Both the position numbers and the translations under genes were made by a program. Of a stretch of 64,000 nucleotides of DNA, positions 32,438 to 49,478 are shown one piece after another. Source of the stretch: Dehalococcoidia bacterium UBA5748 (lineage in GTDB: Bacteria; Chloroflexota; Dehalococcoidia; Dehalococcoidales; UBA5627). Location: NCBI GenBank assembly GCA_002419135.1, contig DIFM01000026.1, positions 5,381 to 69,380 on the forward strand. The letters are read 5' to 3'. A model generated the notes under the pieces. The model was not told the DNA's origin and made no database searches. It saw only the letters and a list, made by a program, of their open reading frames with translations. Each line of letters begins with the position of its first letter. Positions within the stretch are counted from its first letter, which is position 1.

Positions 32438-32684
32438 TGTTTGATCCTTTTCTACCTTCCTTCTAATAGATTTTTAAAACCAAGATAAAAAATGACTCTA
32501 ACTTATACCTCCTTTGTCACGGATTTTTATTAAAAAGCCCAGTTTAGCTTTACATATCCTAACTACCGGACCGGAGTAAACCGGAAATAAAATAAAAAGT
32601 AAATTAACCGCAATTTTAGTAGACTTCAAGCAAAGTGTCAATAGTTATTGGGTGGAAACAAAAGGTTTTTGTTTTAAAAAAGCG

Positions 32685-32717
32685 TTAGCAATCCGCTAGC
32701 AATCCGTTAGCAAAAAC
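32685..32717 (+). repeat. three tandem 11-bp repeats (ttagcaatccg / ctagcaatccg / ttagcaaaaac)
   Basis: Read directly in the AT-rich intergenic region at the left edge of the island. Confidence 0.7.
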
Positions 32718-32872
32718 ATAGTAATAATTCAGTATTAAAACATTAAATATTTTCGCAATCTTAAAACAATTTATTTTGAATAATGAAGATATCATTGTAA
32801 ACTGTGCTTTACAAGTGTAAAATAGCCACAACTAATCATCGTTTATACTTATTAAAGTATTGAGGGGTAAAA

Positions 32873-33133
32873 ATGCCGAGGCTTACCGAACAGGAACAAC
32901 AGGAAATAATCCGCTATCTGGAAACTGATAAACCCCTGCCCGATAAATACCGTTTTCTGCTTTTTGGTGATAAACGCGAAGTAGAGCTTGTCTGGAACGG
33001 CAAAACCAACGAAGTCTGCAATATCGTACTCCCCTTTCAGGTAATCGAGCAGGTCGATGAACCCCGCGCCGAAAAGGACACCCGCCTGCAGATGAGTATG
33101 TTCGATGAGTTGCATAATGGCATAAAAAAATGA
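32873..33133 (+). pseudogene. N-terminal stub (86 aa) of a type III Mod-like DNA methyltransferase
   Basis: KPLPDKYRFLLFGDKREVELVWNGKTNEVCNIVLPFQVIEQVDEPRAEK matches the N-terminus I recall for ~900-aa N6_N4 methylases. It stops before any catalytic motif. Composition switches to AT-rich at about 33120. Confidence 0.6.
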
Positions 33134-33221
33134 CGAATTGTTATTTCTCTTAAAAATAGACATAAATAGTTTAATACTATAGTATCAAAGAATATTATGT
33201 GGTAAAATCAGGCTGATTATC

Positions 33222-36200
33222 ATGCCAGATACAACATTTATCAGTAATGAAAGTAATAAGAAATTAAAGGATAGACTTACTGAACTCATTAAGCATAGTA
33301 AGGAATTAAAATTTCTTGTTGGTTTTTTCTATTTCTCCGGAATTAGAGAATTGTATGACTCTTTAAAGAATAATCCCGCTGTTCAGTTGGATATCCTTGT
33401 TGGTTTGAATGTAGACAGAAAATTAAATAGGCTTACTGAATACAGCGATACGACAAAAGGTTTATCCGATAAAGAAAAATTTGAGCGTTTTCTTACTTCT
33501 ATATCGAAATCAATTAACTCAGATGACTTTGATAATAAGGAATTTTATGAACAGTCTGCATTTTTTATTGAAGCTATTAAACAAGATAGGTTGAGAATCA
33601 GAAAAACATATGACCCGAACCATGCAAAGCTATATATTTTCAAACTGAAAGGCGATGCCGCCGTCGTTAAGAAATCGCTTTTTATTACAGGTAGCAGCAA
33701 TCTGACAAAAGCCGGCCTCTCTCTACAAAACGAATTTAATGTTGAAATCAGTGATTATGGAACTCAAGAAGCTGAAGATTATTTCGATACTTTATGGGAT
33801 GAAGCGGTAAAAATCACTGAGTATGCTGAATTCAAGAAACGTTTAACTGATTTTCTTGATAAGCAAATACTTACAACTGAAGTTACACCATACGAAGCAT
33901 TTGCATTGGTACTTAAAAACTATACTGAGTTGCAGGACCAAAAGCAGATTCAACAACGTTTACTCGATTTACTCGAAGAAAACGGATATAAAAGGTATCA
34001 ATATCAAATTGACGCTGTTACACAAGCTTTAGAGGTAATTAAAAATAATAATGGCGTCATCATTGCCGATGTTGTAGGATTGGGTAAAAGTATCATTGCT
34101 TCACTGGTTGCCAAAAGCCTTAGGGGGCGGGGTGTAATTATTTGTCCGCCGGACCTTATCGGGGATGACAATTACACTACTGGCTGGAAGAAATATAAAA
34201 ACGATTTTAAATTATACGATTGGGAAATTCGTTCATGCGGTTTGCTAACATTAAAAAACACACTTGAACTTGTCCGCAATAATAATGATTTCGAGGTTAT
34301 TATTATAGACGAAGCCCATCGGTTTAGAAACCAGGACACTGAAGCCTATGATGTATTGCGTAATATTTGCCGCGGGAAGACAGTAATCCTGCTTACGGCT
34401 ACTCCCTTTAATAATACACCTGCTGATATTTTATCGTTATTAAGTTTGTTTACAATCCCGGCAAAATCTAATATTACACTGGATGACGATTTAACAATCA
34501 GATTCAGGTCTTATTCTCAAATGTTCCGAAAGCTTTCAAATATAAAAAAGAATTATAATCATAGTAATTCTTCGAAAAAAAATCTGGCTATTGCAGATTA
34601 TCAAGCCCTTTTCGGAGATAAAAATGTCAATTTGAACAAGGTCACAGAAAGGACCAGATATTTATCCAGAAGTATACGTACCGCAATTTCGCCTATTACT
34701 ATCAGACGGAACAGGATAGATTTAAGAAAAGACCCTGTTTACTCGCAAGAAATATATGAACTATCCGATGTTAAAGACCCTTGCGAGATATTTTTTGAAC
34801 TCACTACTGAACAATCTATATTTTATGATAAGGTCTTGGATGAATATTTTGGCGAGAACGGCGAGTTCAGCGGTGCTATTTATCAACCGTTTATATATGA
34901 AAAGGGCCAGAACAGGCATAATGAACAATCAAGAAATGAGGAAGATAACCGCCAGGTAAATATACAGAAAAACCTGTATGATTTTATGAGACGTTTGCTT
35001 GTAAAAAGATTCGAAAGTTCCTTTGGGTCTTTTAGGCAGAGTATTATTAATTTCAAGTCTGTTACTGAAAAAGTGCAGCAGTTTATTAAGAACTCGAATG
35101 GTAAATATATTCTCGACCGCAATCTGCTTGAAAATATTTACGATTTAGATATCGATGAAATAGAAGATGCTTTAAAAGAATACGAAACACTTATCGGAAC
35201 TGGGATTTTCCCCAAAAACTACAAAATTTACGAAATAGACACATTTAAATCCAGGGATAAATTCCTAGCAGATATACAGTCCGATATAGAATTATTTGAC
35301 CGTATTTTAAGCGAATTGGATGCGCTTAAATTGGTCGATAATGACCCAAAGATAAAGAAATTAGCCGGTGAAGTAAAGAAGATAATTGCCAAAAAAGACG
35401 AGCTTGACGAACCGGAAAGAAAAGTCATTATTTTTACGGAATATGTCGATACTGCGAGATACCTGGGAACTTATTTCAACAATGTATTTTCCGATTGCTT
35501 TATCACTGTAAAAGGCGATTTGGATAAGAAAAAAACGGATGAAATATTAAGAAATTTCGACAGTACTCATATTAAGCCGGAAAACAATTACAAGATTCTC
35601 ATTACTACCGATAAAATGGCAGAAGGTTTTAACTTAAACCGGGCAGGTGCGGTGATTAACTACGATATACCTTGGAATCCTACCCGTGTTATTCAACGTG
35701 TCGGACGTATCAACCGCATCAGCAAACGGATATTTAAAAACCTGTACATATATAATTTCTTCCCGACTATCAAGGGCTCAACAGTAGTGAAAAGCCGTCA
35801 AATAGCCACCGAAAAGATGTTTTTAATCCATAACACACTTGGGGAGGATGCCAAAATCTTTGAAATCGATGAAGAACCCACTCCTTCCAGGCTTTTCCAG
35901 AAAATAATGGAAAATCCGGATGAAATGGAGGGTGAGAGCTTTCAGACAAAAGTAAGGCAAATGTATGCCGCTATTGTCAAAGAATCACCGGAGGTAATCG
36001 AGAGAATAAATGAATTGCCTTCAAGAATAAAAGTGGCTAAAGGTTTTAAGGATGACAATCTGGTAGTTTACATCAAAAAAGGAATCGGTTTATTTGCAAG
36101 GGGCTTTGTTAATGGCAGGGATAAACCCGAAGACCTCGTTTTTGAAGATACCTTATCGCTCATAGAATGCGGCAAGGAAGAAAAAGCATTGCAGCTCAGC

Positions 36201-36587
36201 GATTCTTTTTGGAAAAATTATATCAGCGTAAAAAGTTATAAGGATGTCCCGGCTATGCCTTTAGGCCCTGCAAGTATAGAAATTAAAGCCTTAAACAATG
36301 TTAATGCATTACTGGAAGCAAAAATACCGGAAATTGAAGGTTACCTGCCGTTATTGAGAGACCTTAGGGAAGATATGCTCGAATATAAAACGCTACCGGA
36401 TTACACGTTGCGCAGAATAGCTAATCTTAACGCTCAGAATAAAGGCAATGCAAAGCAGAAAAGTGTCAGGGAAGAGTTGGATAAGCTCAAAAAGGAACTC
36501 GGAGAGAATTATCTGGATAAAGTAAAAGCACGAGTAGGCACATTGGAAACCGAGGTTATTATAGCCATTGAAAACATCAAGGAATGA
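33222..36587 (+). CDS. PLD-family (HKD) nuclease domain fused to SNF2-family helicase
   Basis: 1121 aa. HKD motif NHAKLYIF...ITGSSNLTKAG in the first 200 aa. SNF2 motifs: ADVVGLGKS, IIIDEAHRFRN, LLTATPFNN, TTDKMAEGFNLN and DIPWNPTRVIQRVGRINRI. Confidence 0.9.
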   Translation: MPDTTFISNESNKKLKDRLTELIKHSKELKFLVGFFYFSGIRELYDSLKNNPAVQLDILVGLNVDRKLNRLTEYSDTTKGLSDKEKFERFLTSISKSINSDDFDNKEFYEQSAFFIEAIKQDRLRIRKTYDPNHAKLYIFKLKGDAAVVKKSLFITGSSNLTKAGLSLQNEFNVEISDYGTQEAEDYFDTLWDEAVKITEYAEFKKRLTDFLDKQILTTEVTPYEAFALVLKNYTELQDQKQIQQRLLDLLEENGYKRYQYQIDAVTQALEVIKNNNGVIIADVVGLGKSIIASLVAKSLRGRGVIICPPDLIGDDNYTTGWKKYKNDFKLYDWEIRSCGLLTLKNTLELVRNNNDFEVIIIDEAHRFRNQDTEAYDVLRNICRGKTVILLTATPFNNTPADILSLLSLFTIPAKSNITLDDDLTIRFRSYSQMFRKLSNIKKNYNHSNSSKKNLAIADYQALFGDKNVNLNKVTERTRYLSRSIRTAISPITIRRNRIDLRKDPVYSQEIYELSDVKDPCEIFFELTTEQSIFYDKVLDEYFGENGEFSGAIYQPFIYEKGQNRHNEQSRNEEDNRQVNIQKNLYDFMRRLLVKRFESSFGSFRQSIINFKSVTEKVQQFIKNSNGKYILDRNLLENIYDLDIDEIEDALKEYETLIGTGIFPKNYKIYEIDTFKSRDKFLADIQSDIELFDRILSELDALKLVDNDPKIKKLAGEVKKIIAKKDELDEPERKVIIFTEYVDTARYLGTYFNNVFSDCFITVKGDLDKKKTDEILRNFDSTHIKPENNYKILITTDKMAEGFNLNRAGAVINYDIPWNPTRVIQRVGRINRISKRIFKNLYIYNFFPTIKGSTVVKSRQIATEKMFLIHNTLGEDAKIFEIDEEPTPSRLFQKIMENPDEMEGESFQTKVRQMYAAIVKESPEVIERINELPSRIKVAKGFKDDNLVVYIKKGIGLFARGFVNGRDKPEDLVFEDTLSLIECGKEEKALQLSDSFWKNYISVKSYKDVPAMPLGPASIEIKALNNVNALLEAKIPEIEGYLPLLRDLREDMLEYKTLPDYTLRRIANLNAQNKGNAKQKSVREELDKLKKELGENYLDKVKARVGTLETEVIIAIENIKE

Positions 36588-39500
36588 ATATGAATGAAGA
36601 ACGCTTGACCAAACTGATTAACGATTTTAATCCTAAAAACCTCACCTTTTTTCTCCGTGATAAATGTATAAATTATGCCGAAATTCTCCAATTATTGCCC
36701 CAATACGATGATGAAAGGTTCAATGCCTTTCAAAAGCTTGGGGAAATTAAATTCGATAACAACGACAGGCTGGTTGTAGTAACCGCTAAGGTATGTGGTG
36801 ATTTAAGCGAACGCTCCGGTAAAAAAGCCCAGTATGATAAAGCTAAAAAGATACTTAAGGAATTATTGGTCTGCAATGCCGGCTTTTTTATCTATTACGA
36901 TAACAACGGGAATTTCCGTTTCAGCCTCGTTTATGCGCAATACGAAGGCACGAAAGTCAATTTTAACAACTTCCGGCGTTTTACCTACTTTATAGATAAG
37001 CAGCAGACGAATAATACCTTTAAAAAGAGAGTCGGCGAGTGTGATTTTATAAGCCTTGAAAAAATCAAGGATGCTTTCTCGGTCGAGAAGGTTAACAAGG
37101 AATTTTACGGTGAAATCGCCAAATACTATTACAGGCTGACCGATAAAACTCACAAAGAATTGGTATTGCCGTCAGTCGGCGAAAATGATGGAAGCAAATA
37201 TGAGGAATTTGCCGTAAGGCTTATCGGGCGTATTATTTTCTGCTGGTTTTTAAAACACAAATCATCGGCGAACAGAATACCTTTAATCCCGAAAGCTGTT
37301 TTATCATCAGATGCGGTAGATGTTAAAAAAGAATATTACCATTTAATCCTCGAAAAGCTGTTTTTTGAGGTAATGAATAAGCAGCAAGGCAAGAGAACGA
37401 ATGATATCGATTTATATATCCCGAATCACAAGCAAATCCCGTTTTTAAACGGTGGTCTCTTCGAAGCCCACAATAATGATTTTTACAAAGGTACTGTAAA
37501 TAATAATTTAAAGATATCTCCGCAATGGTTTAAGGAATTTTTCGTATTGTTGGAACGCTATAACTTTACAATCGATGAAAACTCGACGGTCGATGCCGAA
37601 GTATCCGTTGACCCGGAAATGCTGGGCAGAATCTTTGAGAACCTGCTGGCGGAAATAGTGCCGGAAACCGGAGAAACCGCCAGAAAGGCTACCGGTAGTT
37701 ACTATACTCCACGTGTTATTGTGGATTACATGGTCGAGCAGTCTTTAAAGCAATACTTGGTAACCAAAACAAGCCTGACTGAAGATATTATCGATTCTCT
37801 GCTTTCGTATGAGGTTGATACCGTAGATATAACCGATAGCGAAAAAACGGCTGTTGTGAAGGCATTGAAGGAAATTAAAGTTATCGACCCAGCCTGCGGT
37901 TCCGGGGCTTTCCCGATGGGTATTTTACATCGAATATTACTGGTTTTGGAGAAAGTAGACCCTAATCTCGAAATTTGGAGAAAGTTGTATCTTAGTACCT
38001 ATCATCCGGTAATGAGAAAAATAATTGAGGACAAACTAAGTAAAGGCAATGAGCAGTATATACGCAAGCTGACGATAATTCAGGATTCCATTTACGGAGT
38101 TGATATACAGCCGATTGCGGTAGAGATAGCTAAGTTAAGATGTTTCCTTTCGCTGGTTGTGGATGAACTGGTTTTTGATAATGAAGATAATCGTGGTATC
38201 GAAGCATTGCCCAATCTGGAGTTCAAATTTGTTGCGGCAAATACCCTTATTGGATTGCCACCAATCGCTAGCCAAAGTGCCTTTGGTGTTACGGATTTAG
38301 TTGAAAAACTTAAGGATTTAAGGGAAAGATACCTACGTAGCTTTGGTGAAGAAAAGTTACAAATCGAAAAGGAGTTCAAAGACACCCAGCAGAAACTCTA
38401 TAAAGAGAATGTTCAATGGGCTTTATCAAGTACTATAGCAAAACAGCTCAGTGATTGGGACCCGTTCTCTTACGAATCCTGTAGCTGGTTCGAGCCTGCG
38501 TGGATGTTTGGGAAAGATGGTTTTGATATTGTGATTGCCAACCCGCCGTATTTAGGGGAAAAAGGACATAAGGAAATATTCCAAAAGATAAAACAAGGTA
38601 CACTCAAAAAATATTATATAGGCAAGATGGATTTATTTTATTTCTTTTTCCATCTGGCTCTTAATCTGAGTGATATTAACTCTCAAATAGCTTTTATAAC
38701 TACGAATTACTACCCGACTGCATCCAGCGCCATTAAACTGCGTAAAGATTTTAAGGAGCGCTCTATAATTCGCAGATTAATCAACTTCAATGAGCTAAAG
38801 ATATTTGAGTCAGCTTTAGGGCAGCATAATATGGTGTCAATAATATCCAAAGGACAGGACGAAAACGCTAAAGTTGATACGTGTATTACTTGCAGAACAG
38901 GTGTAGCTAATATGAACATATTGCACGATATACTAGCTTGGGCGGATATCGAGACTACTTACTACAACTTAACACAAAATGATTTGTATGAAGGGGATGA
39001 ATGTTATATGCGGATTACGGGAAGTGCGGCTTCTGAAGCAACCCCTATACAACATATTCTCAACAAAGTTCAAACCCAAGGGCATAAACTTATCCTGTTT
39101 TGTAATATTAATCAAGGCATTGTTACTGGCGCAGATAAATTAAGCAACAGGCACATTATTAAATATGGAATTAAAGGAAATCGAGGGGATGGCATTTTCG
39201 TTTTAGATAGTGAAGAAATTGCTGACCTTAGAATTCCTTGTGCTGATAAAAAAATATTAAAACCTTGGTTTAAAAATTCGGATATCCTAAAATGGAAAAC
39301 CCAAAAAGAAACACACGAAAATGTGATCTACTTAGACCGACACAACAAAGAAATCTACGAAAACTATGAAAGGCACCTCACAAAATATAAAGCAGTACTT
39401 GCCCAAAGGAGAGAAGTTATTAATGGAGTAATTAACTGGTGGCAACTTCAATGGCCAAGAGATATTAATTTTTGTGGACCTAAAGTTGTTGTTCCCCAGC

Positions 39501-39916
39501 GTAGCTATAAGAATACTTTTGCTTACAATGATATTCCTTGGTATGCAAGTGCAGATGTCTATTTTATAACAGAAAAAGATGAGGGGACAAGCCTAAAATA
39601 TTGTTTAGCGTTATTGAATTCTAAACTGTATTATCTGTGGCTTTACCATAAAGGGAAGCGGAAAGGCGAAATGCTGGAACTATACCAAGTCCCTTTATCC
39701 GAAATTCCTATAAAAAAGATATCGAAAAATAATCAGGAACCTTTTATTGAATTAGTAGCCCAAATCCTCGATATCACTAAAGATGAAGATTACCTTTCTA
39801 ATCCTGCCAAGAAAGCCAAAGTAAAGGATTTGGAACGCGAAATCGACATATTAGTCTATGAGCTATATGAGCTAACACCGGAAGAGATTGCAATCGTCGA
39901 AGGTAATAATAAATGA
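36584..39916 (+). CDS. PglX/MmeI/Eco57I-like N6-adenine DNA methyltransferase with TaqI-C-type specificity region
   Basis: 1110 aa, with an ATGA overlap on the upstream gene. Motifs FLNGGLFE, GSYYTP, VIDPACGSGAFP, IYGVDIQPIAVEIAKLRCFLSL and IANPPY, plus a long C-terminal TRD-like part. Confidence 0.9.
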   Translation: MNMNEERLTKLINDFNPKNLTFFLRDKCINYAEILQLLPQYDDERFNAFQKLGEIKFDNNDRLVVVTAKVCGDLSERSGKKAQYDKAKKILKELLVCNAGFFIYYDNNGNFRFSLVYAQYEGTKVNFNNFRRFTYFIDKQQTNNTFKKRVGECDFISLEKIKDAFSVEKVNKEFYGEIAKYYYRLTDKTHKELVLPSVGENDGSKYEEFAVRLIGRIIFCWFLKHKSSANRIPLIPKAVLSSDAVDVKKEYYHLILEKLFFEVMNKQQGKRTNDIDLYIPNHKQIPFLNGGLFEAHNNDFYKGTVNNNLKISPQWFKEFFVLLERYNFTIDENSTVDAEVSVDPEMLGRIFENLLAEIVPETGETARKATGSYYTPRVIVDYMVEQSLKQYLVTKTSLTEDIIDSLLSYEVDTVDITDSEKTAVVKALKEIKVIDPACGSGAFPMGILHRILLVLEKVDPNLEIWRKLYLSTYHPVMRKIIEDKLSKGNEQYIRKLTIIQDSIYGVDIQPIAVEIAKLRCFLSLVVDELVFDNEDNRGIEALPNLEFKFVAANTLIGLPPIASQSAFGVTDLVEKLKDLRERYLRSFGEEKLQIEKEFKDTQQKLYKENVQWALSSTIAKQLSDWDPFSYESCSWFEPAWMFGKDGFDIVIANPPYLGEKGHKEIFQKIKQGTLKKYYIGKMDLFYFFFHLALNLSDINSQIAFITTNYYPTASSAIKLRKDFKERSIIRRLINFNELKIFESALGQHNMVSIISKGQDENAKVDTCITCRTGVANMNILHDILAWADIETTYYNLTQNDLYEGDECYMRITGSAASEATPIQHILNKVQTQGHKLILFCNINQGIVTGADKLSNRHIIKYGIKGNRGDGIFVLDSEEIADLRIPCADKKILKPWFKNSDILKWKTQKETHENVIYLDRHNKEIYENYERHLTKYKAVLAQRREVINGVINWWQLQWPRDINFCGPKVVVPQRSYKNTFAYNDIPWYASADVYFITEKDEGTSLKYCLALLNSKLYYLWLYHKGKRKGEMLELYQVPLSEIPIKKISKNNQEPFIELVAQILDITKDEDYLSNPAKKAKVKDLEREIDILVYELYELTPEEIAIVEGNNK

Positions 39917-39925
39917 GGAAATAAA

Positions 39926-40564
39926 ATGGCAGAGCAAAAAAATGAAACGATATACCAGTTAAAAATCACTCTTAAAGAAAGCAAACCCCCTATCTGGCGG
40001 CGGATACAGGTTCCCGCCAATATCACTCTCCATAAATTGCACGCGATTCTGCAGTGCGTAATGGGTTGGTATGACTACCATCTCTACGGGTTTCGTATCG
40101 CAGGCATCGAATACGGTATCCCCGACCCGGATGGTGACTTTGACGAGTTTGATTTAAAAGACTCTCGCAGGGCACGGCTAAACAAGGTTATATCCGGTGA
40201 GAAAGCAGTATTCACCTATGATTACGATTTCGGCGACGGCTGGGAACACCAAATTTTAGTCGAGAAAATATTGCCGGCAGAATCAGGCGTACAGTACCCG
40301 GTCTGCCTGACCGGTAAGCGCGCCTGCCCGCCGGAAGATTGCGGCGGTATCGGGGGTTATGAAGACCTGCTTAAAATAATCCGCAACCCGGCGCATGAAG
40401 AATACGAAGAAATGATGGAATGGCTAGGAGGCCCGTTCGACCCGGAGGAATTCGATATCGAAGACATTAACCCGTATCTGGCACGCTATTATAAGACAAC
40501 GAAACCCAAGCGCACCGATGTCCCCGAGGTTTTTCATAGGGCTTTTGAACCGAAAGACGAATAA
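39926..40564 (+). CDS. pRiA4b ORF-3-like (PF07929-type) protein
   Basis: 212 aa. IYQLKITLKESKPPIWRRIQVPANITLHKLHAILQCVMGWYDYHLYGF is the signature I recall for this family. It starts 9 nt after the methyltransferase stop. Confidence 0.85.
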   Translation: MAEQKNETIYQLKITLKESKPPIWRRIQVPANITLHKLHAILQCVMGWYDYHLYGFRIAGIEYGIPDPDGDFDEFDLKDSRRARLNKVISGEKAVFTYDYDFGDGWEHQILVEKILPAESGVQYPVCLTGKRACPPEDCGGIGGYEDLLKIIRNPAHEEYEEMMEWLGGPFDPEEFDIEDINPYLARYYKTTKPKRTDVPEVFHRAFEPKDE

Positions 40565-40581
40565 CTATATAGCAGAAACAG

Positions 40582-40618
40582 AAAAGCCCTTTAAGTTTTA
40601 AATACTTATGGGGCTTTT
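40582..40618 (+). terminator. possible terminator hairpin after the island genes
   Basis: aaaagccc/gggctttt stem with a large loop, followed by tta. Confidence 0.35.
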
Positions 40619-40631
40619 TAGCTTCAAAAAA

Positions 40632-40707
40632 TGGTACCCCTGGTGAGAGTCGAACTCACGACACGCGGTTTAGGAAACCGCTGCTCTATCCACTGAGCTA
40701 CAGGGGC
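40632..40707 (-). tRNA. tRNA-Arg (anticodon CCT)
   Basis: Hand-folded cloverleaf on the minus strand: GCCCCTG acceptor, TAGCTCAGTGGATAGAGC D-arm, anticodon stem GCGGT/ACCGC with loop TTCCTAA, GTTCGACTC T-loop, encoded CCA. Ends are +/-2 nt. Confidence 0.85.
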
Positions 40708-43191: not shown

Positions 43192-43241
43192 TCGAAGTAG
43201 TGATTTTAATCGTTATGAACTCGGAACAGGGGGAAACTAAT

Positions 43242-46200
43242 ATGAAAATATTGATAGTCGAAGATAACGAAGACAGCCGCAACTTGTTATCGAAACAGCT
43301 GCGCTCTTACGGGCATGAAGTAATAACGGCAAATAACGGAATCGAAGCTTTGGAGCAGGCTCTCAAAGATGCCCCCGACATAGTGGTGAGCGATATCCAG
43401 ATGCCTGAAATGGACGGCTTTCAGCTATGCCGCCAGTGGAAGCAGAATGAAAAGCTTAAATACATACCAGTTGTTTTTTATACTGCTACCTATACATCCC
43501 AGGAAGATGAAAAATTTGCCTTGAATCTCGGCGTGAATGCCTTTGTAAGAAAACCGACCGATCCCGGTGTGTTGGCAAAAATCCTGTCCGAAATAATTGA
43601 ACAAGCCGGAGCCGGACTTTTACCTCCCCCGATAGTCGAGTCTCTTGGGCAAGATGAATATCTGGAAGAGTACAATAAACGCCTGGTTGCCAAATTGCAG
43701 AAAAAAATTGAAGATTTGAATCTGGAAATCAGCAGGCGTAAAAAAGCGGAATCGGATATCAGGAGAATCGGCCGCATGCTGAGAACTATCAGCGAATGCA
43801 ATCAGCTCCTTGTGCACGCCACCGATGAGAAGGAATTACTGGAGAGTATATGTGATTTGGTCGTCAGGTCGGAGGGTTTCCCGTTGGCATGGGCGGGTTT
43901 TGCCGAAAACGATGAAGATAAAACAGTTCGACCTGTTGCCTTTGCCGGAAGCGTCACGGAGTATCTGAATAACCTGAAAATCAGCTGGGCAGATAACGAA
44001 TTCGGCAAGGGGCCGACGGGTGTGGCTATCAGGACAGGCAAACACTGTATCGCCCGTTATGGCACTACCGATTCGGATTTTGCCCGCTGGCACGCTTCGG
44101 CGGCAAAATACGGATTCAATTCTTCGATTGCCCTGCCGCTTATTTCTGAAGGCATAACCATTGGCTCGCTCAATATATATTCAAAGGATGAAGACGCTTT
44201 TAATGAAGAACAGGTCAAATTGCTTGCCGAACTGGCGGATGACCTGGCATACGGTATTACCGCATTACGCAAGCGGCATGAACTGGATATTGCCACCGAA
44301 AATCTGGTGCGCTCCGAGAAAAAATACTCGACTCTTGTAGAATATAGTAGCGACGGCATAATCATCATACAGGACGGGCTAATCAAGTTTGCCAACCGGG
44401 AAACGACAAGAATGACGGGGTTTACTTTAAATGAAACAATCGGAAAAGCTCTGGCTGATTTTGTCAGTCCGCGTTATAAAGAGTTTGTTTCCGAAAGATA
44501 TACTAGAAGGATGGCAGGAGAAGATGTTCCCAGCCGGTACGAAGTTGAGATAAACAGAAAAAACGGTAAGGCTGTACCTGTAGAGATAAATGCCGGTATT
44601 ATTGAGTACGATGGGAAGCCGGCGGATATGGCGCTAATCCGCGATATAACCGAGCGCAAGGAAGCTGAGCAGCAGGTCCTGAGGCAACGAACTATATTGG
44701 AAGCTATCAACAGGGTATTCGAGGATACTCTCGAGTGTGAAACGGATGAAGAAGTAGCTCGAAGTTGCCTCTCCGTTGCCGAGCAGCTTACCGGCAGTGA
44801 GTTCGGCTGGATAGGCGAGATAAATAAAGCCGGGCTACTTGATACGCTGGCACAGAGCGACCCGGGCTGGCAGGCTTGCAGAATACCCGGCACTACGGCA
44901 ACCAAATGTATCAGGAATATGGATGTTCGGGGAGTTTGGGGAAGGGTATTAAAAAGCCGAAAAGCATTAATAACTAACGACCCGTCGACACATCCCGACA
45001 GCGTAGGAGTACCGGACGGGCATCCTTCTTTAACGTCCTTCCTCGGGGTGCCGTTAAAAGATGGCGCAAAGACATTCGGTATGATTGCACTGGCTAACAA
45101 GCCGGACGGCTATACATTATTGGAACAGGAAGCTGTTGAGAAGCTGTCCGTAGCCATGGTCGAACTGTTAAGACGCAAACGAGCGGATAACAGCGTAAGG
45201 TTACATGAGCGGCATCTGCAGGAATTAGTCGAACTTTATAAAATGACGGAAGACCGCCGAAAATCTATATCGGATTATGTAAGTTACACACTTGAGTCGG
45301 TTCAAAAGTCTTTGCAGAGCCGGATTGCCTTCATCGGCACGATGAATGAAGACGAATCGATATTTACGACTCTCGCATGGACAAAAGATACTATGAAGCA
45401 ATGTGCTATCGAGAAAAAACCGATGCGTTTTTCGATAGCAGAGTCCGGGTTGTGGGGTGAGGTGGTGAGACAGCGCCGCCCGATTGTCATTAACGACTAC
45501 GATGCTGCTGAAGAGTATAAGAAGGGGTATCCGGAGGGGCATATCCCCATAAAACGCTTCTTAAGCGTACCAATTTTCAGTTCAGACAGAATAGTAGCTG
45601 TGGCGGCTGTTGCCAACAGGGATTCGGAATACAATGATTCAGATGTCAATGTCCTGACTTCCCTGCTGCATGAGATGTGGAATTTGACCGAGCGTAAAAA
45701 GGATGAGGAAGCGCTTAAGGAAAGTGAAGCGAAATACCGCTTGCTGGTGGAAAACATACCGGTCGGAGTGGCAATTATGCGCGGCGGTAAAATTCTATTC
45801 ACAAACAGTCAGAACGAACAAATATCCGGTTATACAATCGAAGAACTCAAGTCCATTAATCCCTTTGATGCAATTTATGAAGAAGATCGTGCCAAAGTAA
45901 CCGAATATGCCGCTATGAGGGTACGGGGCGAATCTGTCCCCGGCAGTTATGATATAAGAATTATACATAAAGACGGGAGCCTACGCTGGTTGAATCGTAA
46001 TGTAGTACGGATTGACTGGCTGGGGGAGAAAGCTTTGCTAATAATAGATACCGATATCACCGAGCGCATTAAAGCAGAGCAAGCGGTTCAAGAAAGCGAG
46101 AAGAAATATCATTCACTCTTCACGCAATCTACCGAGGGGATTTATGTTCATGATTTAGACGGCAATATTGTTGATGTCAATGAGGTGGCTTGTATACAAA

Positions 46201-49200
46201 CAGAGTATACCCGGGAAGAACTTTTACAGTTAAATGTATTTGATTTGCATCCGGATTGTCAGCCTACTGCTAATAATCCGAAGCCTGAAATAATTGAACT
46301 TTGGAAAGGCTGGCAGACAGGGCAGAGGTTCTACTATGAAGGAGAACATCGACGCAAGAATGGAAATGTCTATCCAACCGAAATATCGACAGGTGTTATC
46401 GAATATGGAAACAATAAATACATTCTTGCTATTGTTAAAGATATCACTGAGCGTAAAGAAGCCGCCGAATCACTGAGGAAGGAAAGGGAAAGTGCCCGGA
46501 GAATACTGGATACGGCGCAGGCCATCATCCTTACGCTTGACAGTAAAGGTAAGATTGTACATTTCAATCCTTATACGACCGCTATTTCCGGCTATACAAT
46601 CGATGAGGTGAGAGGTAAAGACTGGTTTGAAACCTTTTTACCGCAACGGAATCGCCAACAAACCAGAGCGATGTTTAATAAAGCGCTGGAAACCGTAAAA
46701 CCGGCATCAAATGTAGATATTATTGTCACCAAGGCGGGGGAAGAGCGTTTCATCGATTGGTATTTCATCTCGATAAAAGATAACGGCGGGGAAACGCTCG
46801 GGGTGCTGTCCACAGGGCAGGATGTTACCGAACGCAGGAAAGCCGAGGAAGAGGTACTTGCTTCCGAAACCCGCTATCGCCGTCTCTTTGAAGCAGCCAA
46901 GGATGGAATCCTGATAGTCAATGCAGAGACGGGATTAATCTTCGACGTAAATCCGTTTTTAATTAACCTGCTGGGATTAACTAAAGAAGATTTTATTGGC
47001 AAGGAGTTATGGGAGATTGGGATATTTAAGGATATCGTAGCGAATAAAGCCAATTTTGAGGAGTTACGGCAAAAAGGGCGTATTCGTTATGAAGATTTGC
47101 CGTTAAGAACGCACGATGGCCGGCAGGTAGATGTGGAATTCGTCAGCAATGTATATGAGGTTGACCACAGTAAAGTAATCCAATGCAATATTCGTGATAT
47201 CACCGAGCGTAAGAAGGCGGAGGAAGCATTAAAAGATGAAGCCACCCGCAGGCGCATACTCCTCGAGCAGTCGAGGGATGGCATTGTCGTCCTCAATCAG
47301 GAAGGCGGAGTACATGAAGCTAACAAACGTTTTGCCGAGATGCTCGGTTATTCTAATGAGGAAGTGCTCAAACTTCATGCTTGGGATTGGGAATATATGG
47401 CATCGCAAGACCGGCTTGTCGAAATGTTACGCGATGTAGATGAAAAAGGTGACCAATTCGAAACGAAACACCGCCGCAAGGATGGCAGTATATATGATGT
47501 CGAAATAAGCACAAACGGCGCCATTTTTGCCGGGCAAAAGCTGATTTTCTGTGTTTGCCGCGATATTACCGAGCGTAAGAATGCACAAGAAGAATTGCGT
47601 GAATCACAGCATCTTTTCAGTACAGTTGCCAATACATCACCGGCATTGGTATGGATGTCGGGAACGGATAAGCTATGCAATTGGTTTAATGAGCCATGGC
47701 TGACCTTCACCGGGCGCACTATGGAACAGGAGATGGGTAATGGCTGGACAGATGGCGTACATCCCGATGATTTAGCCGGTTGTTTAAAAACTTATGTGCA
47801 AGCCTTCGATAGCAGACAAGAATTTTCTATGGAATACCGCCTGCGGCATCATGACGGAGAATACAGATGGATTATCGATAAGGGAACGCCCAGATTTGAT
47901 GCTAATGGCAATTTTATGGGTTATATCGGCTCCTGTCTTGATATCACCGAGCGTAAGAAAGCAGCGGAACAGATGCGGAAAAGCGAAGAGAAATACCGTA
48001 CGTTATTTGAAACCATGAGACAGGGTGTGATTTTCTGGAATGAAAACGGCAAACTGATTTCGGCTAATGCGGCTACAGAGGGTATACTGGGCTTATCCAT
48101 GGAACAAATGCTGGGGAAATCGCCTGCAGAAATCTTCCGGAAAGCTATTCATGAAAACGGCTCTGCTTTCCCGAAGAATAAGTATCCCTCCTGTATGGCG
48201 TTAAAGAGTGGAAACTCGGCAAAAGATATTATTATGGGGGTTTTCAACTTTAAGGAGGACAGATATCGCTGGATAGTTATCAATGCGATGCCTCTGTTTA
48301 AAGAGAACGAAAATAAACCACATCAGGTTTATACCACCTATAGCGATATTACTCAAATCAAGCAAATTGAGAGGGCATTAATCCAATCAGAAAACAATCT
48401 GCGCCAATTGCTGGACAGTTGGACAACGACCTTCAATTCTATAAATAACGGCATCTGCCTGCTGTCACTCGATGGCACTGTCATCCGTTGTAATCAAGCA
48501 ATGAATGATATATTGGGAAAAACCGATAAAGAGATCAACGGAGAAAAGTGTTTCAGGCTTGTTCACGGAACGGAAAGGCGTATAAAAGGATGCCCTCATT
48601 TAAAGATGATAAAAAGCGGGCACCGGGAAGCATTCGAATACATGGTAGGAGAGAAGTGGTTCTATACGGTGGTAGACCCGATATTCGACGGCAAGGGAAA
48701 TATTAGCGCGTCTGTTCACATAATGGAGGACATCACGGAACGCAAGAAGACGGCGGAAAGGATGATTGTGACAGACCGCCTGGCATCAATCGGCGAGCTT
48801 TCTTCGGGTATCGCTCACGAGCTTAATAATCCGCTCACCAGTGTCATAGGCCTTACGCAATTGCTTCTGGAGGGGGGGAATATTCCGGAAGACATTTCAA
48901 GAGATCTGCAACTGGTTAACAGCGAAGCTCGGAGGGCGGCTAAAGTAGTTAAAAACCTGCTCGTTTTTGCCCGCAGGCATCCTAATGAAATGCAATTGTC
49001 GGATGTTAATCAGGCTGTTGAGAAGGTGCTTGAATTACGGGAATACGAACAGAAAGTCAGTAATATAAGGGTTATCAGAAAACTCGACCCGCACCTCCCA
49101 CGGATATTGATGGACTACTTCCAGATTCAACAGGTATTTCTAAATATCGTCGTTAACGCAGAATTTGCCATGGTAGAGGCGCATAACAAAGGGACACTCA

Positions 49201-49478
49201 TTATAAAAAGTGAGAGAGCCGGAGAGATGGTCAGGGTATCTTTCACTGATGACGGTCCGGGTATATCCGGAGAGAATTTGAAGAAGCTATTCGACCCCTT
49301 TTTCACCACCAAGGAAGTGGGCAAGGGAACCGGTTTGGGCTTGAGTATTTGTCATGGTATAATTTCCCAGCACCGCGGGAACATCTATGCGGAAAGTGAA
49401 TTGGGGAAAGGCGCTACATTTGCAGTGGAGCTCCCCATAAATCTGTCTGAAGAAACCGAAGGGGAAAATAATGAATAA
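43242..49478 (+). CDS. giant hybrid sensor kinase: REC - GAF x3 - PAS x9 - HisKA - HATPase
   Basis: Start moved to MKILIVEDNED. Receiver domain, then GAF-like and PAS modules separated by nine DITERK-type linkers, an H-box (SSGIAHELNNPLTSV) and an ATPase (DDGPGI...GKGTGLGLSI). Confidence 0.9.
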   Translation: MKILIVEDNEDSRNLLSKQLRSYGHEVITANNGIEALEQALKDAPDIVVSDIQMPEMDGFQLCRQWKQNEKLKYIPVVFYTATYTSQEDEKFALNLGVNAFVRKPTDPGVLAKILSEIIEQAGAGLLPPPIVESLGQDEYLEEYNKRLVAKLQKKIEDLNLEISRRKKAESDIRRIGRMLRTISECNQLLVHATDEKELLESICDLVVRSEGFPLAWAGFAENDEDKTVRPVAFAGSVTEYLNNLKISWADNEFGKGPTGVAIRTGKHCIARYGTTDSDFARWHASAAKYGFNSSIALPLISEGITIGSLNIYSKDEDAFNEEQVKLLAELADDLAYGITALRKRHELDIATENLVRSEKKYSTLVEYSSDGIIIIQDGLIKFANRETTRMTGFTLNETIGKALADFVSPRYKEFVSERYTRRMAGEDVPSRYEVEINRKNGKAVPVEINAGIIEYDGKPADMALIRDITERKEAEQQVLRQRTILEAINRVFEDTLECETDEEVARSCLSVAEQLTGSEFGWIGEINKAGLLDTLAQSDPGWQACRIPGTTATKCIRNMDVRGVWGRVLKSRKALITNDPSTHPDSVGVPDGHPSLTSFLGVPLKDGAKTFGMIALANKPDGYTLLEQEAVEKLSVAMVELLRRKRADNSVRLHERHLQELVELYKMTEDRRKSISDYVSYTLESVQKSLQSRIAFIGTMNEDESIFTTLAWTKDTMKQCAIEKKPMRFSIAESGLWGEVVRQRRPIVINDYDAAEEYKKGYPEGHIPIKRFLSVPIFSSDRIVAVAAVANRDSEYNDSDVNVLTSLLHEMWNLTERKKDEEALKESEAKYRLLVENIPVGVAIMRGGKILFTNSQNEQISGYTIEELKSINPFDAIYEEDRAKVTEYAAMRVRGESVPGSYDIRIIHKDGSLRWLNRNVVRIDWLGEKALLIIDTDITERIKAEQAVQESEKKYHSLFTQSTEGIYVHDLDGNIVDVNEVACIQTEYTREELLQLNVFDLHPDCQPTANNPKPEIIELWKGWQTGQRFYYEGEHRRKNGNVYPTEISTGVIEYGNNKYILAIVKDITERKEAAESLRKERESARRILDTAQAIILTLDSKGKIVHFNPYTTAISGYTIDEVRGKDWFETFLPQRNRQQTRAMFNKALETVKPASNVDIIVTKAGEERFIDWYFISIKDNGGETLGVLSTGQDVTERRKAEEEVLASETRYRRLFEAAKDGILIVNAETGLIFDVNPFLINLLGLTKEDFIGKELWEIGIFKDIVANKANFEELRQKGRIRYEDLPLRTHDGRQVDVEFVSNVYEVDHSKVIQCNIRDITERKKAEEALKDEATRRRILLEQSRDGIVVLNQEGGVHEANKRFAEMLGYSNEEVLKLHAWDWEYMASQDRLVEMLRDVDEKGDQFETKHRRKDGSIYDVEISTNGAIFAGQKLIFCVCRDITERKNAQEELRESQHLFSTVANTSPALVWMSGTDKLCNWFNEPWLTFTGRTMEQEMGNGWTDGVHPDDLAGCLKTYVQAFDSRQEFSMEYRLRHHDGEYRWIIDKGTPRFDANGNFMGYIGSCLDITERKKAAEQMRKSEEKYRTLFETMRQGVIFWNENGKLISANAATEGILGLSMEQMLGKSPAEIFRKAIHENGSAFPKNKYPSCMALKSGNSAKDIIMGVFNFKEDRYRWIVINAMPLFKENENKPHQVYTTYSDITQIKQIERALIQSENNLRQLLDSWTTTFNSINNGICLLSLDGTVIRCNQAMNDILGKTDKEINGEKCFRLVHGTERRIKGCPHLKMIKSGHREAFEYMVGEKWFYTVVDPIFDGKGNISASVHIMEDITERKKTAERMIVTDRLASIGELSSGIAHELNNPLTSVIGLTQLLLEGGNIPEDISRDLQLVNSEARRAAKVVKNLLVFARRHPNEMQLSDVNQAVEKVLELREYEQKVSNIRVIRKLDPHLPRILMDYFQIQQVFLNIVVNAEFAMVEAHNKGTLIIKSERAGEMVRVSFTDDGPGISGENLKKLFDPFFTTKEVGKGTGLGLSICHGIISQHRGNIYAESELGKGATFAVELPINLSEETEGENNE

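Follow-up and report, generated by a model that had tools for sequence, protein, structure and literature searches.

A probable two-component, ATP-dependent restriction-modification system on a mobile island of Dehalococcoidia: a PLD-Swi2/Snf2 protein and an MmeI-like methylase

The question

Why should a gene for a nuclease fused to a motor overlap a gene for an adenine methylase, and what might the two products do together? The question is raised by two open reading frames (ORFs) within a stretch of 64,000 nucleotides, here called the window, taken from contig DIFM01000026.1 of assembly GCA_002419135.1 (positions 5,381 to 69,380, forward strand). The source is a metagenome-assembled genome, Dehalococcoidia bacterium UBA5748 (Chloroflexota). 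ORF1 (33222..36587, + strand, 1121 aa) combines a phospholipase D (PLD) nuclease of the HKD kind with a Swi2/Snf2 ATPase, as judged by Pfam, PADLOC and an AlphaFold2 (AF2) model, and is the predicted restriction and motor subunit. ORF2 (36584..39916, + strand, 1110 aa) is, by its Pfam matches, a gamma-class N6-adenine methyltransferase (MTase) to which a specificity domain is fused, and is predicted to be the subunit for modification and target recognition. NCBI calls them "helicase" and "hypothetical protein". The genes around them are housekeeping genes, encoding a sodium:neurotransmitter symporter, NadA and histidine kinases.

A first-pass annotation, made from the letters of the window alone, saw in these two genes a candidate for an undescribed defence pair akin to restriction-modification (R-M) systems, with nuclease and motor on one protein and methylase and specificity on the other. 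That division of labor is still the best reading. Its functional side is well backed by the comparative evidence given below; its claim to novelty went too far, and a third gene that it considered must be dropped. The view argued here is that the pair is probably a two-component, ATP-dependent R-M system, sitting on a 7.3-kb horizontally acquired island, and that it probably restricts phage and plasmid DNA, so far as sequences can tell. The argument rests on observation in five respects: the domains of the proteins, their intact catalytic motifs, the insertion of the island, the constancy of the pairing and the co-evolution of the partners.

A mobile two-gene unit

Consider the relatives that lack both genes. 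In three contigs from closely related Dehalococcoidia (L086-L088; compared loci bear L numbers) the order of genes is the same as in the window, ORF1 and ORF2 are both absent, and the gene for the symporter (SNF transporter) is followed directly by one for a PRiA4_ORF3 protein. By blastn, synteny with the empty site is lost at window positions 32648 and 39923, and where the window has a segment of 7,274 bp (32649..39922, with no strand assigned), the empty site has 523 bp. The right edge of the segment falls 6 nt past the stop codon of ORF2. Composition sets the same region apart, its G+C fraction being 0.35-0.38 over 32438-39916 and 0.46-0.49 in the flanks. Low GC and the empty site together mark a horizontally acquired island that carries both genes, and the empty-site comparison identifies the pair as a mobile two-gene unit. 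Since metagenome 3300002220 holds both forms, L003 with the island and L088 without it, the Dehalococcoidia population is polymorphic for this defence island. Neither terminal repeats, direct or inverted, nor an integrase or recombinase were found in the island. A scan for promoters and terminators gave matches no commoner than those in shuffled sequence.

The empty site also settles the status of the third gene that the first-pass annotation had entertained as part of the system. PRiA4_ORF3 (MM3350-like; 39926-40564, + strand) begins just 9 nt past ORF2. It is a resident host gene, because it is present at the empty site and its GC (0.49) is that of the host; moreover, it is absent from 80 of 80 related loci. 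The protein has 212 aa in the window and 194 aa in the island-free relatives.

Towards its left end the island holds traces of something else. An 86-aa ORF (32873-33133, + strand) has 73-75% identity with the N-terminus of a site-specific DNA methyltransferase of 705 aa, whose gene lies upstream of a DEAD/DEAH (DEAD-box) helicase gene in a Type III-like Mod/Res arrangement on an Aminobacter plasmid. The ORF is what remains of a different R-M gene, one of a Type III-like kind, and suggests that R-M genes have recombined here or that one cassette has replaced another. Other PLD-SNF2 loci do not have it as a neighbor.

Constancy of the pair

The first-pass annotation had made its reading depend on the two families being neighbors in other genomes as well. 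They are. When one genome of each GTDB species was scanned with a profile, 80 loci came to light, each with a full-length homologue of ORF1 at 46-59% identity, in phyla that include Patescibacteria, Chloroflexota, Planctomycetota, Nitrospirota, Bacteroidota, Desulfobacterota, Bacillota and Spirochaetota. ORFs were called in all related loci and clustered into families, and only one other family proved to be common: methylases of the ORF2 type, about 1,130 aa in length, present in 59 of 82 loci, the rest being mostly short contigs. Flanks of 5 kb or more on each side are available for 36 loci, and in 35 of these the methylase is no more than 5 kb away (34 of 35 if the window's own contig is set aside), and in every locus where it was found it lies on the same strand as the ORF1 homologue. 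The methylase gene follows that of the ORF1 homologue in 19 loci and precedes it in 16; the two adjoin directly in 18, and the 4-nt overlap recurs in 18. The next most common neighbor family reaches 12 loci only. No DUF499, DUF3780, DrmA/DrmB, PglZ or BrxC family recurs in the 80 loci. A reverse look-up with residues 1-358 of ORF2 led to three proteins. Two adjoin an intact PLD-SNF2 gene, and upstream of the third is a gap with no called gene, where a PLD-SNF2 gene has probably decayed.

When other genes come between the two, they tend to be of a certain kind: DarT/DarG, AbiEi/AbiEii, DUF1016/YhcG, an ATPase composed of Schlafen-AlbA_2 and HATPase_c_4, and AAA_14 with DUF4143. In L016 a gene for an OLD-family ATPase, with a UvrD-like gene, is found just downstream of the methylase. 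Loci with inserted or adjoining defence genes include L010, L016, L027, L034, L035, L050, L062 and L074. Type I R-M and BREX operons commonly carry inserted defence genes of this sort as passengers, and the present operon appears to offer them a docking site. The pair is also found on plasmids and on a mobilisable element, and no full-length homologue occurs in 50,697 phage records.

Decayed copies of the pair are common. In Dehalococcoides mccartyi JAEMVJ010000017.1 (L005, 2759-5956) an ORF1 homologue with 73% identity ends near residue 990 and is fused in frame to the last 67 or so codons of an ORF2-type methylase, a single deletion having taken the C-terminus of the helicase along with almost the whole methylase. 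Such a joint loss is in keeping with the view that the nuclease gene does not stay intact once its methylase is gone. The neighbors of this locus are genes of the MJECL33/MJECL32 families and an AAA_15 ATPase gene. In another D. mccartyi locus (L091, 5048-12578) the methylase is split, an uncalled gap occupies the expected site of the helicase, and a Piwi (pAgo) gene adjoins. A Dehalogenimonas contig (L090, 9001-13470) has a methylase split by an rve-family insertion sequence (IS). In Mucilaginibacter gossypii (L089, 5715-10563) the intact PLD-SNF2 gene is followed by a truncated methylase of 520 aa, on a mobilisable element that carries an integrase, MobC and a relaxase.

A nuclease joined to a motor

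The N-terminal part of ORF1 is a PLD-fold nuclease domain (33282..33797, + strand; aa 21-192; PLDc_2, E 2e-9) with one HKD motif. NHAKLYIF occupies residues 133-140, the codon of His134 being at 33621 and H134 and K136 together spanning nt 33621-33629, and GSSN follows at residues 157-160 (nt 33690-33701). Next comes the Swi2/Snf2 ATPase core (33981..35876, + strand; aa 254-885; SNF2-rel_dom, ResIII and Helicase_C), which has a long helical insertion between its lobes. In ORF1 are found GLGKS at 34077-34091, DEAH at 34308-34319, LLTATPFNN, TTDKMAEGFNLN and DIPWNPTRVIQRVGRINRI. All four Pfam families score above their gathering cut-offs, and homologues of ORF1 also match RE_NgoFVII. Both ORFs of the first-pass annotation, with their overlap, and every motif quoted there are thus just where it had placed them, and the domains that it named in the two proteins are borne out by Pfam matches above gathering cut-offs.

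It had also seen one HKD motif and a complete SNF2 core. In 78 homologues of ORF1 the following are invariant: H134 and K136, G157-S-S-N160, K289 (the Walker A lysine), D363/E364 and R826/R829. The motifs GLGKS, DEAH, TATP and QRVGRINR are likewise invariant among homologues. As judged by this conservation and by that of the ORF2 motifs described in the next section, the features of both proteins are real and under selection.

The full-length AF2 model of ORF1 (predicted local distance difference test, pLDDT, 80; predicted template-modelling score, pTM, 0.75) finds its best fold matches, with E values near 1e-13, in the Swi2/Snf2 proteins SMARCAD1, RapA, Chd1 and ISWI. CSB and Mot1 are also among the top matches, and RapA aligns over the whole length. 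SauUSI is not within the top 50. Pfam finds no DUF3427, SRA or EVE domain in ORF1, and no reader of modified bases was recognised there. The alpha+beta/helical region that remains at the C-terminus (35877..36584, + strand; aa 886-1121) has no Pfam match and is modelled confidently by AF2. Its median identity to homologues is 39%, compared with about 55% for the core. Only one PADLOC model spans both the nuclease and the motor: PDLC01075, 'HKD+Snf2', which aligns with residues 9-885 (E 2e-33, 114 bits). The parent system of that model ('C3a139') could not be confirmed.

To judge from Nuc and BfiI, and from the dimer seen in the structure of MtsD, a protein taken up below, an active PLD site in ORF1, with its one HKD motif, would need two copies of the protein.

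A methylase without a recognizable nuclease

ORF2 begins within ORF1, the two sharing ATGA at 36584-36587. An alternative start, the ATG at 36590, would give a protein of 1108 aa. It has the better Shine-Dalgarno spacing (AAGGA, 6 nt) and is the one used by gene callers on three of four contigs. With either start the genes are tightly coupled. On one contig (L002, 11363-14700; JGI contig Draft_10015027) ORF2 is in four pieces beside an ORF1 that is 100% identical. Loss of the methylase was considered and rejected, for the adjoining symporter gene is fragmented too, and the split is most likely an error of sequencing or assembly.

The protein has FLNGGLFE and IYGVDIQPIAVEIAKLRCFLSL, and its methyltransferase catalytic domain (37604..38893, + strand; about aa 341-770; from Pfam and motifs) shows GSYYTP at 37694-37711, motif I, DPACGSGAF, from 37886 and motif IV, NPPY, at 38540-38551. 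NPPY is invariant and DPAxGSGAF nearly so in 49 homologues. Pfam matches above the gathering cut-offs are to Eco57I (E 6e-30), MmeI_Mtase, N6_Mtase and TaqI_C. The last, at aa 944-1043, falls within the target-recognition domain (TRD; 38894..39913, + strand; about aa 771-1110; Pfam), the part of ORF2 that diverges fastest, with a median identity to homologues of 19% compared with 36-41% elsewhere in the protein. The best match by sequence in the PDB is CamA, over aa 633-1091. Ahead of the catalytic domain is a helical linker (37058..37603, + strand; about aa 159-340; from a profile match), and homologues of ORF2 carry precomputed Pfam matches there to PF20465 and PF25120 (DUF7814).

What lies ahead of the linker is of greatest concern here. 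In a profile of 70 homologues of ORF2, positions 159-295 match residues 124-266 of MmeI (5hr4; E 2e-5), which form the helical spacer after the nuclease domain of that enzyme, and residues 1-158 of ORF2 are matched by nothing. Because the match with MmeI starts after the nuclease, the N-terminal domain of ORF2 (36584..37003, + strand; aa 1-140) sits in the place of the PD-(D/E)xK nuclease of MmeI. The best PADLOC models for ORF2, 'REase_MTase_IIG' (E 1e-76), tell a similar story, since the best Type IIG profile aligns only from residue 161. AF2 models residues 1-358 with a pLDDT of 88.7, above 90 in the N-terminal domain, and residues 17-137 run alpha-beta-beta-beta-alpha-beta-beta-beta, a topology that, read by eye from the model, would be compatible with a restriction-endonuclease-like core. 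The residues equivalent to (D/E)xK, aa 67-69 on the third strand, are not conserved in the 70 homologues, being T/A/S, variable, and K/E/Q. Foldseek found no significant match of the domain in the PDB, to a nuclease or otherwise. The earlier remark that no nuclease motif can be recognized in ORF2 therefore holds up.

The N-terminal domain is also rare. It has only 314 homologues among 1.84 billion cluster representatives, and in 314 of 314 it forms the very N-terminal end of the protein, whose length is about 1,000-1,250 aa unless it is a fragment. Pairwise identities of the helicase-nuclease were compared with those of four regions of ORF2 over the 49 loci in which both genes are intact. The correlation with helicase identity is 0.83 for the N-terminal domain (aa 1-140), 0.36 for the helical domain, 0.27 for the methyltransferase core and 0.19 for the TRD (Mantel test, p=0.002). 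Differing levels of divergence do not explain the contrast, because mean identity in the N-terminal domain (0.41) is close to that in the methylase core (0.36). Nor is the contrast due to the proximity of the genes. Where the methylase gene lies upstream (22 loci), no part of it is farther from the helicase gene than the end that encodes the N-terminus, yet in this subset the N-terminal domain still tracks the helicase best, with an r of 0.91 compared with 0.44 for the specificity domain next to the helicase gene. A distant clade from lactococci, taken up below, fits the pattern: its helicase is 26% identical to ORF1, and its methylase aligns with ORF2 from residue 163 only, the N-terminal part being different. 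From these comparisons I read the N-terminal domain as a system-specific adaptor between the two proteins, a predicted docking module for ORF1, while the methylase and specificity modules would be exchanged by recombination.

It might be objected that the two genes are independent neighbors. ORF2 would then be a self-sufficient Type IIG/IIL enzyme with an unconventional N-terminal nuclease, and ORF1 a stand-alone defence enzyme, perhaps of Type IV like SauUSI, that happens to share a defence island. PLD-helicase fusions such as SauUSI do work autonomously, 'REase_MTase_IIG' is the best PADLOC label for ORF2, and in the N-terminal domain an alpha-beta-beta-beta-alpha-beta core is accompanied by acidic and basic residues that are conserved. 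REBASE also calls the lactococcal relatives Type IIG (as quoted in PMC6098607). But it is hard to see why independent genes should co-occur on the same strand in 35 of 36 loci, frequently with a 4-nt overlap, or why an N-terminal domain confined to this family should track ORF1 so closely. The (D/E)xK motif is not conserved in ORF2, no modified-base reader can be recognized in ORF1, and SauUSI is missing from its top 50 fold matches. I consider independence distinctly unlikely.

Relationship to known systems

The closest characterized relative of the pair is MANTIS (Gao_RL / Gao_29 / BR type-2), a Type-2, DUF499-centred system related to BREX, which defends against unmodified DNA and consists of MtsA (a DUF499 AAA+ protein), MtsB (DUF3780), MtsC (an N6A MTase) and MtsD (a PLD-SF2 dimer). 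The MtsD dimer has one PLD active site, as seen by electron cryomicroscopy, and restriction requires the MTase for targeting and the ATPase of MtsD (bioRxiv 10.64898/2026.09.23.753747). ORF1 has the architecture of MtsD, an N-terminal HKD/PLD domain with a superfamily 2 (SF2) ATPase, here of the Swi2/Snf2 type. Neither a DUF499 MtsA nor a DUF3780 MtsB is found in the island, in its flanks or as a recurring family in the 80 related loci, and ORF2 is of the Eco57I/MmeI, Type IIG-like kind, with TaqI_C and its family-specific N-terminal domain, rather than an MTase of the BR/BREX-3 type. The match of ORF1 to 'HKD+Snf2' is weak in relation to its length (114 bits over about 880 aa), and the system behind that model is the unconfirmed one. 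Lacking MtsA and MtsB, and with a methylase from another family, the pair is not a member of MANTIS.

With the Type IIG/IIL enzymes (MmeI, Eco57I, Cj0031) ORF2 shares the helical spacer, the NPPY methyltransferase and the fused C-terminal specificity domain. Its N-terminal domain, however, is unrelated to theirs or degenerate, without a conserved PD-(D/E)xK catalytic motif. The nuclease of the pair would instead be supplied in trans, along with an ATP-dependent motor. Because no nuclease motif was found in the methylase chain, ORF2 would not, on this evidence, be a true Type IIG enzyme. Type ISP enzymes (LlaGI, LlaBIII) have the same set of activities, namely a nuclease, a translocase of double-stranded DNA (dsDNA), a gamma-class N6-adenine MTase and a specificity domain, and the pair may share with them the hemimethylation of asymmetric sites and cleavage upon collision. 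A Type ISP enzyme, though, has all of these on one polypeptide, its nuclease being an Mrr-type PD-(D/E)xK domain and its SF2 motor a different one, whereas the pair is two ORFs parted by a stop codon, with a PLD nuclease and a Swi2/Snf2 motor. SauUSI (Type IV) and CglI/NgoAVII (ATP-dependent Type II) also couple a PLD nuclease to an SF2 ATPase, with one PLD site per dimer and cleavage that depends on translocation. SauUSI reads 5-methylcytosine through DUF3427 and has no partner methylase; ORF1 lacks DUF3427 and has a methylase as its conserved companion. In neither SauUSI nor CglI/NgoAVII does a Type IIG-like methylase recruit a motor of the Swi2/Snf2 kind.

Class 1 DISARM comes near in its parts, a PLD protein (DrmC), an SNF2 helicase (DrmD) and an Eco57I-type N6A methylase (DrmMI), and there are partial matches between ORF1 and DrmD and between ORF2 and DrmMI. 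In ORF1, though, PLD and SNF2 are fused, and DrmA (helicase + DUF1998) and DrmB (DUF1998) are absent from the neighborhood in the window. DrmD (NCBIfam NF038317) scores 153.8 bits with ORF1, the cut-off being 610, and aligns only with aa 578-883. PglX (NF033452) scores 82.8 bits with ORF2, the cut-off being 500, and the locus has no PglZ or BrxC of BREX. The first-pass annotation was thus right to place the pair in neither system: the defining parts are missing both from the window and from the 80 loci. Might the pair be the degraded remnant of some larger named system, be it Class 1 DISARM, MANTIS/BR type-2 or BREX? The partial matches of ORF1 to DrmD, BrxH and 'HKD+Snf2', and of ORF2 to DrmMI and PglX, lend themselves to this idea. 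Remnants, however, are not expected to be the rule in 80 loci over many phyla, with intact ORFs and no other conserved neighbor family. All NCBIfam scores are far under the family cut-offs, and the island stops right after ORF2. The idea is exceedingly improbable.

In view of the literature, the claim that the pair is undescribed is too strong. Van Mastrigt et al. (2018) described orf33 (PLD, SNF2 and Helicase_C) and orf34 of the Lactococcus lactis plasmid pLd8, proposed orf33 as the source of the nuclease, and pointed out a resemblance to Class 1 DISARM (PMC6098607), which is the same architecture and the same inference. Milman et al. (2023) noted Cj0031-like Type II R-M genes with an adjacent PLD (cd09178)/SNF helicase gene as targets of programmed inversion (PMC9881135). 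The PLD-helicase effector of MANTIS has been studied by experiment as well (bioRxiv 10.64898/2026.09.23.753747). The two-gene architecture of the 'putative type IIG' operon of pLd8 (orf33/orf34), and likewise of pJM1F, is identical to that of the pair, PLDc_2, SNF2 and Helicase_C overlapping an Eco57I and TaqI_C methylase. The lactococcal operons nevertheless form a distant clade, with a methylase 29% identical from residue 163 onwards and the differences in helicase and N-terminal domain already mentioned, and they possess an invertible specificity cassette and an Mpi invertase. In L. cremoris pJM1F (L095, 1683-10176) an inverted stand-alone TaqI_C cassette and a gene for an Mpi-family master DNA invertase stand immediately downstream. 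This arrangement points to phase-variable switching of restriction specificity, in agreement with the inversion targets of PMC9881135. The literature searched has no name, census, mechanism or experiment for the pair. Thus the architecture is not strictly undescribed, and the pair is uncharacterized, widespread, and unrecognized as a pair in any annotation seen.

Programmed inversions are familiar from phasevarions, and those undergone by relatives of ORF2 raise the thought that the role of the pair is epigenetic or housekeeping, ORF2 serving as a phase-variable regulatory methylase and ORF1 as a repair or remodelling helicase. A housekeeping function is not what one expects of a strain-variable island of low GC, embedded at times with toxin-antitoxin and abortive-infection passengers and carried on plasmids and a mobilisable element. 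The invariance of the nuclease residues also counts against it. Such a role seems very improbable.

A model for the action of ORF1 and ORF2

In its boldest form, the proposal is that ORF1 and ORF2 need no further partner and make up a minimal ATP-dependent restriction enzyme of two proteins, a type that R-M nomenclature does not yet recognize. In it an MmeI-like methylase would have traded its nuclease for a small docking domain that recruits and licenses a dimeric PLD-Swi2/Snf2 motor-nuclease. This specific proposal is a tentative one, and I would put its chances at somewhat less than even. Restriction activity, ATP dependence and the existence of a methylation motif are things that I infer, as are the individual steps: discrimination of self from non-self by methylation, physical docking, dimerization, translocation and cleavage.

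The mechanism that goes with the broader reading, a two-component, ATP-dependent R-M system, which I consider probable, would run as follows. ORF2 would mark host sites and recognize unmodified sites on incoming DNA. Having a single specificity domain, it probably recognizes a short, asymmetric site and methylates only one of the two strands, as MmeI does. The N-terminal domain, instead of cutting, would recruit ORF1, and two copies of ORF1 would pair through their single-HKD PLD domains to make one metal-independent nuclease site. The Swi2/Snf2 ATPase of the dimer would drive translocation along dsDNA away from the site bound by ORF2, and cleavage would take place when translocating complexes collide or when another occupied site is reached, much as in Type ISP, Type III and MANTIS. 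With a single PLD site, the dimer would cut the two strands in sequence, once it collides with another complex or is stalled by it. Type ISP, Type III and MANTIS, which hemimethylate their sites, spare newly replicated host DNA by requiring or favoring inverted pairs of unmodified sites, and the pair is predicted to do likewise.

Several points weigh against this model. The searched literature gives no methylome, restriction assay or ATPase assay for the family. At L020, a locus with ample flanks, no methylase lies within 10 kb. (Its downstream ORF of 1305 aa was examined as an alternative methylase and rejected, having only weak Pfam matches, to AAA_13 and others of coiled-coil type.) At several loci an apparently intact ORF1 homologue stands beside a methylase that is truncated or disrupted by an IS, which argues against strong toxicity of ORF1 without ORF2. 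The N-terminal domain of ORF2 has other conserved charged residues (E54, E76, R77, K80, K81, D98, D106, R112 and R132), and because of them an unconventional catalytic site is possible there. A signal of co-evolution is no proof of physical contact. Finally, even in MANTIS the MtsD nuclease was not reconstituted in vitro, and MtsC needs the AAA+ loader (bioRxiv 10.64898/2026.09.23.753747). A loader of that kind is absent from this locus, and two proteins may be insufficient or may work differently.

That last thought leads to a further alternative, that the system is indeed based on methylation and is not a simple cutter. It may call for extra host factors, or it may exclude foreign DNA in the manner of BREX, by remodelling, nicking or blocking replication rather than by cleavage of both strands. 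The precedent of MANTIS is in its favor, with a loader and a co-activator needed for methylation and restriction and with cleavage by MtsD not reconstituted. So is the motor, of the genuine Swi2/Snf2 remodeller type with RapA, CSB and Mot1 among its top fold matches, and so is the low autotoxicity suggested by damaged methylases beside intact homologues of ORF1. Yet the catalytic residues of the HKD motif are invariant in 78 homologues, the 80 loci offer no third conserved gene, and the movement of a two-gene unit among many phyla speaks against reliance on lineage-specific host factors. I regard this alternative as rather unlikely.

Implications

If ORF1 and ORF2 do act as a two-protein enzyme, then annotation has a blind spot. 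PADLOC models, and REBASE in the case of the lactococcal relatives, call the methylase Type IIG, and none of the annotations seen names the adjacent PLD-SNF2 gene as its partner. Because only the methylase is labelled, such loci in many phyla may be misclassified, both as to where the nuclease is located and as to dependence on ATP. Should the minimal two-protein reading be true, many 'Type IIG' loci would be ATP-dependent two-subunit enzymes, and effectors of the MANTIS type could be targeted without an AAA+ loader.

The pair is the simplest known relative of the MANTIS/BR systems, with two proteins rather than four and no AAA+ loader. It could serve as a tractable model of how a methylase licenses a PLD-helicase effector, a step that the authors of the MANTIS study did not reconstitute in vitro (bioRxiv 10.64898/2026.09.23.753747). 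Co-evolution singles out the 140-aa domain as the candidate surface of contact. Nucleases that are sequence-specific, metal-independent and coupled to a motor, with specificity domains that can be swapped, may also be of use as reagents. What is new here is the proof from an empty site that the unit is mobile, the statistic of 35 neighboring pairs (within 5 kb) in 36 loci, and the finding that a rare 140-aa domain at the N-terminus of the methylase, in the place of the nuclease of MmeI, co-evolves with the helicase-nuclease, from which a testable model of coupling follows.

Variants and other features

A variant from Thermales departs further from the form seen in the window. On plasmid pMESIL02 of Allomeiothermus silvanus (L092, 2831-10372) the helicase-nuclease is 40% identical to ORF1, and upstream of it are genes for an Eco57I-type methylase of 787 aa and a separate protein of 327 aa. 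Specificity may reside there on a separate subunit. A Dam-type methylase is encoded nearby.

Downstream of PRiA4_ORF3 the window has a 74-bp element (40582-40655) that is 88% identical to positions 7683-7756 of L086. The L086 copy is inside the 523-bp segment of the empty site, upstream of PRiA4_ORF3, and the element is a short dispersed repeat. Farther along, at 43200-49478 (+ strand), is a gene for a hybrid sensor histidine kinase of 2092 aa with a receiver, three GAF domains and about nine PAS domains, which looks like ordinary host signalling, unrelated to the pair.

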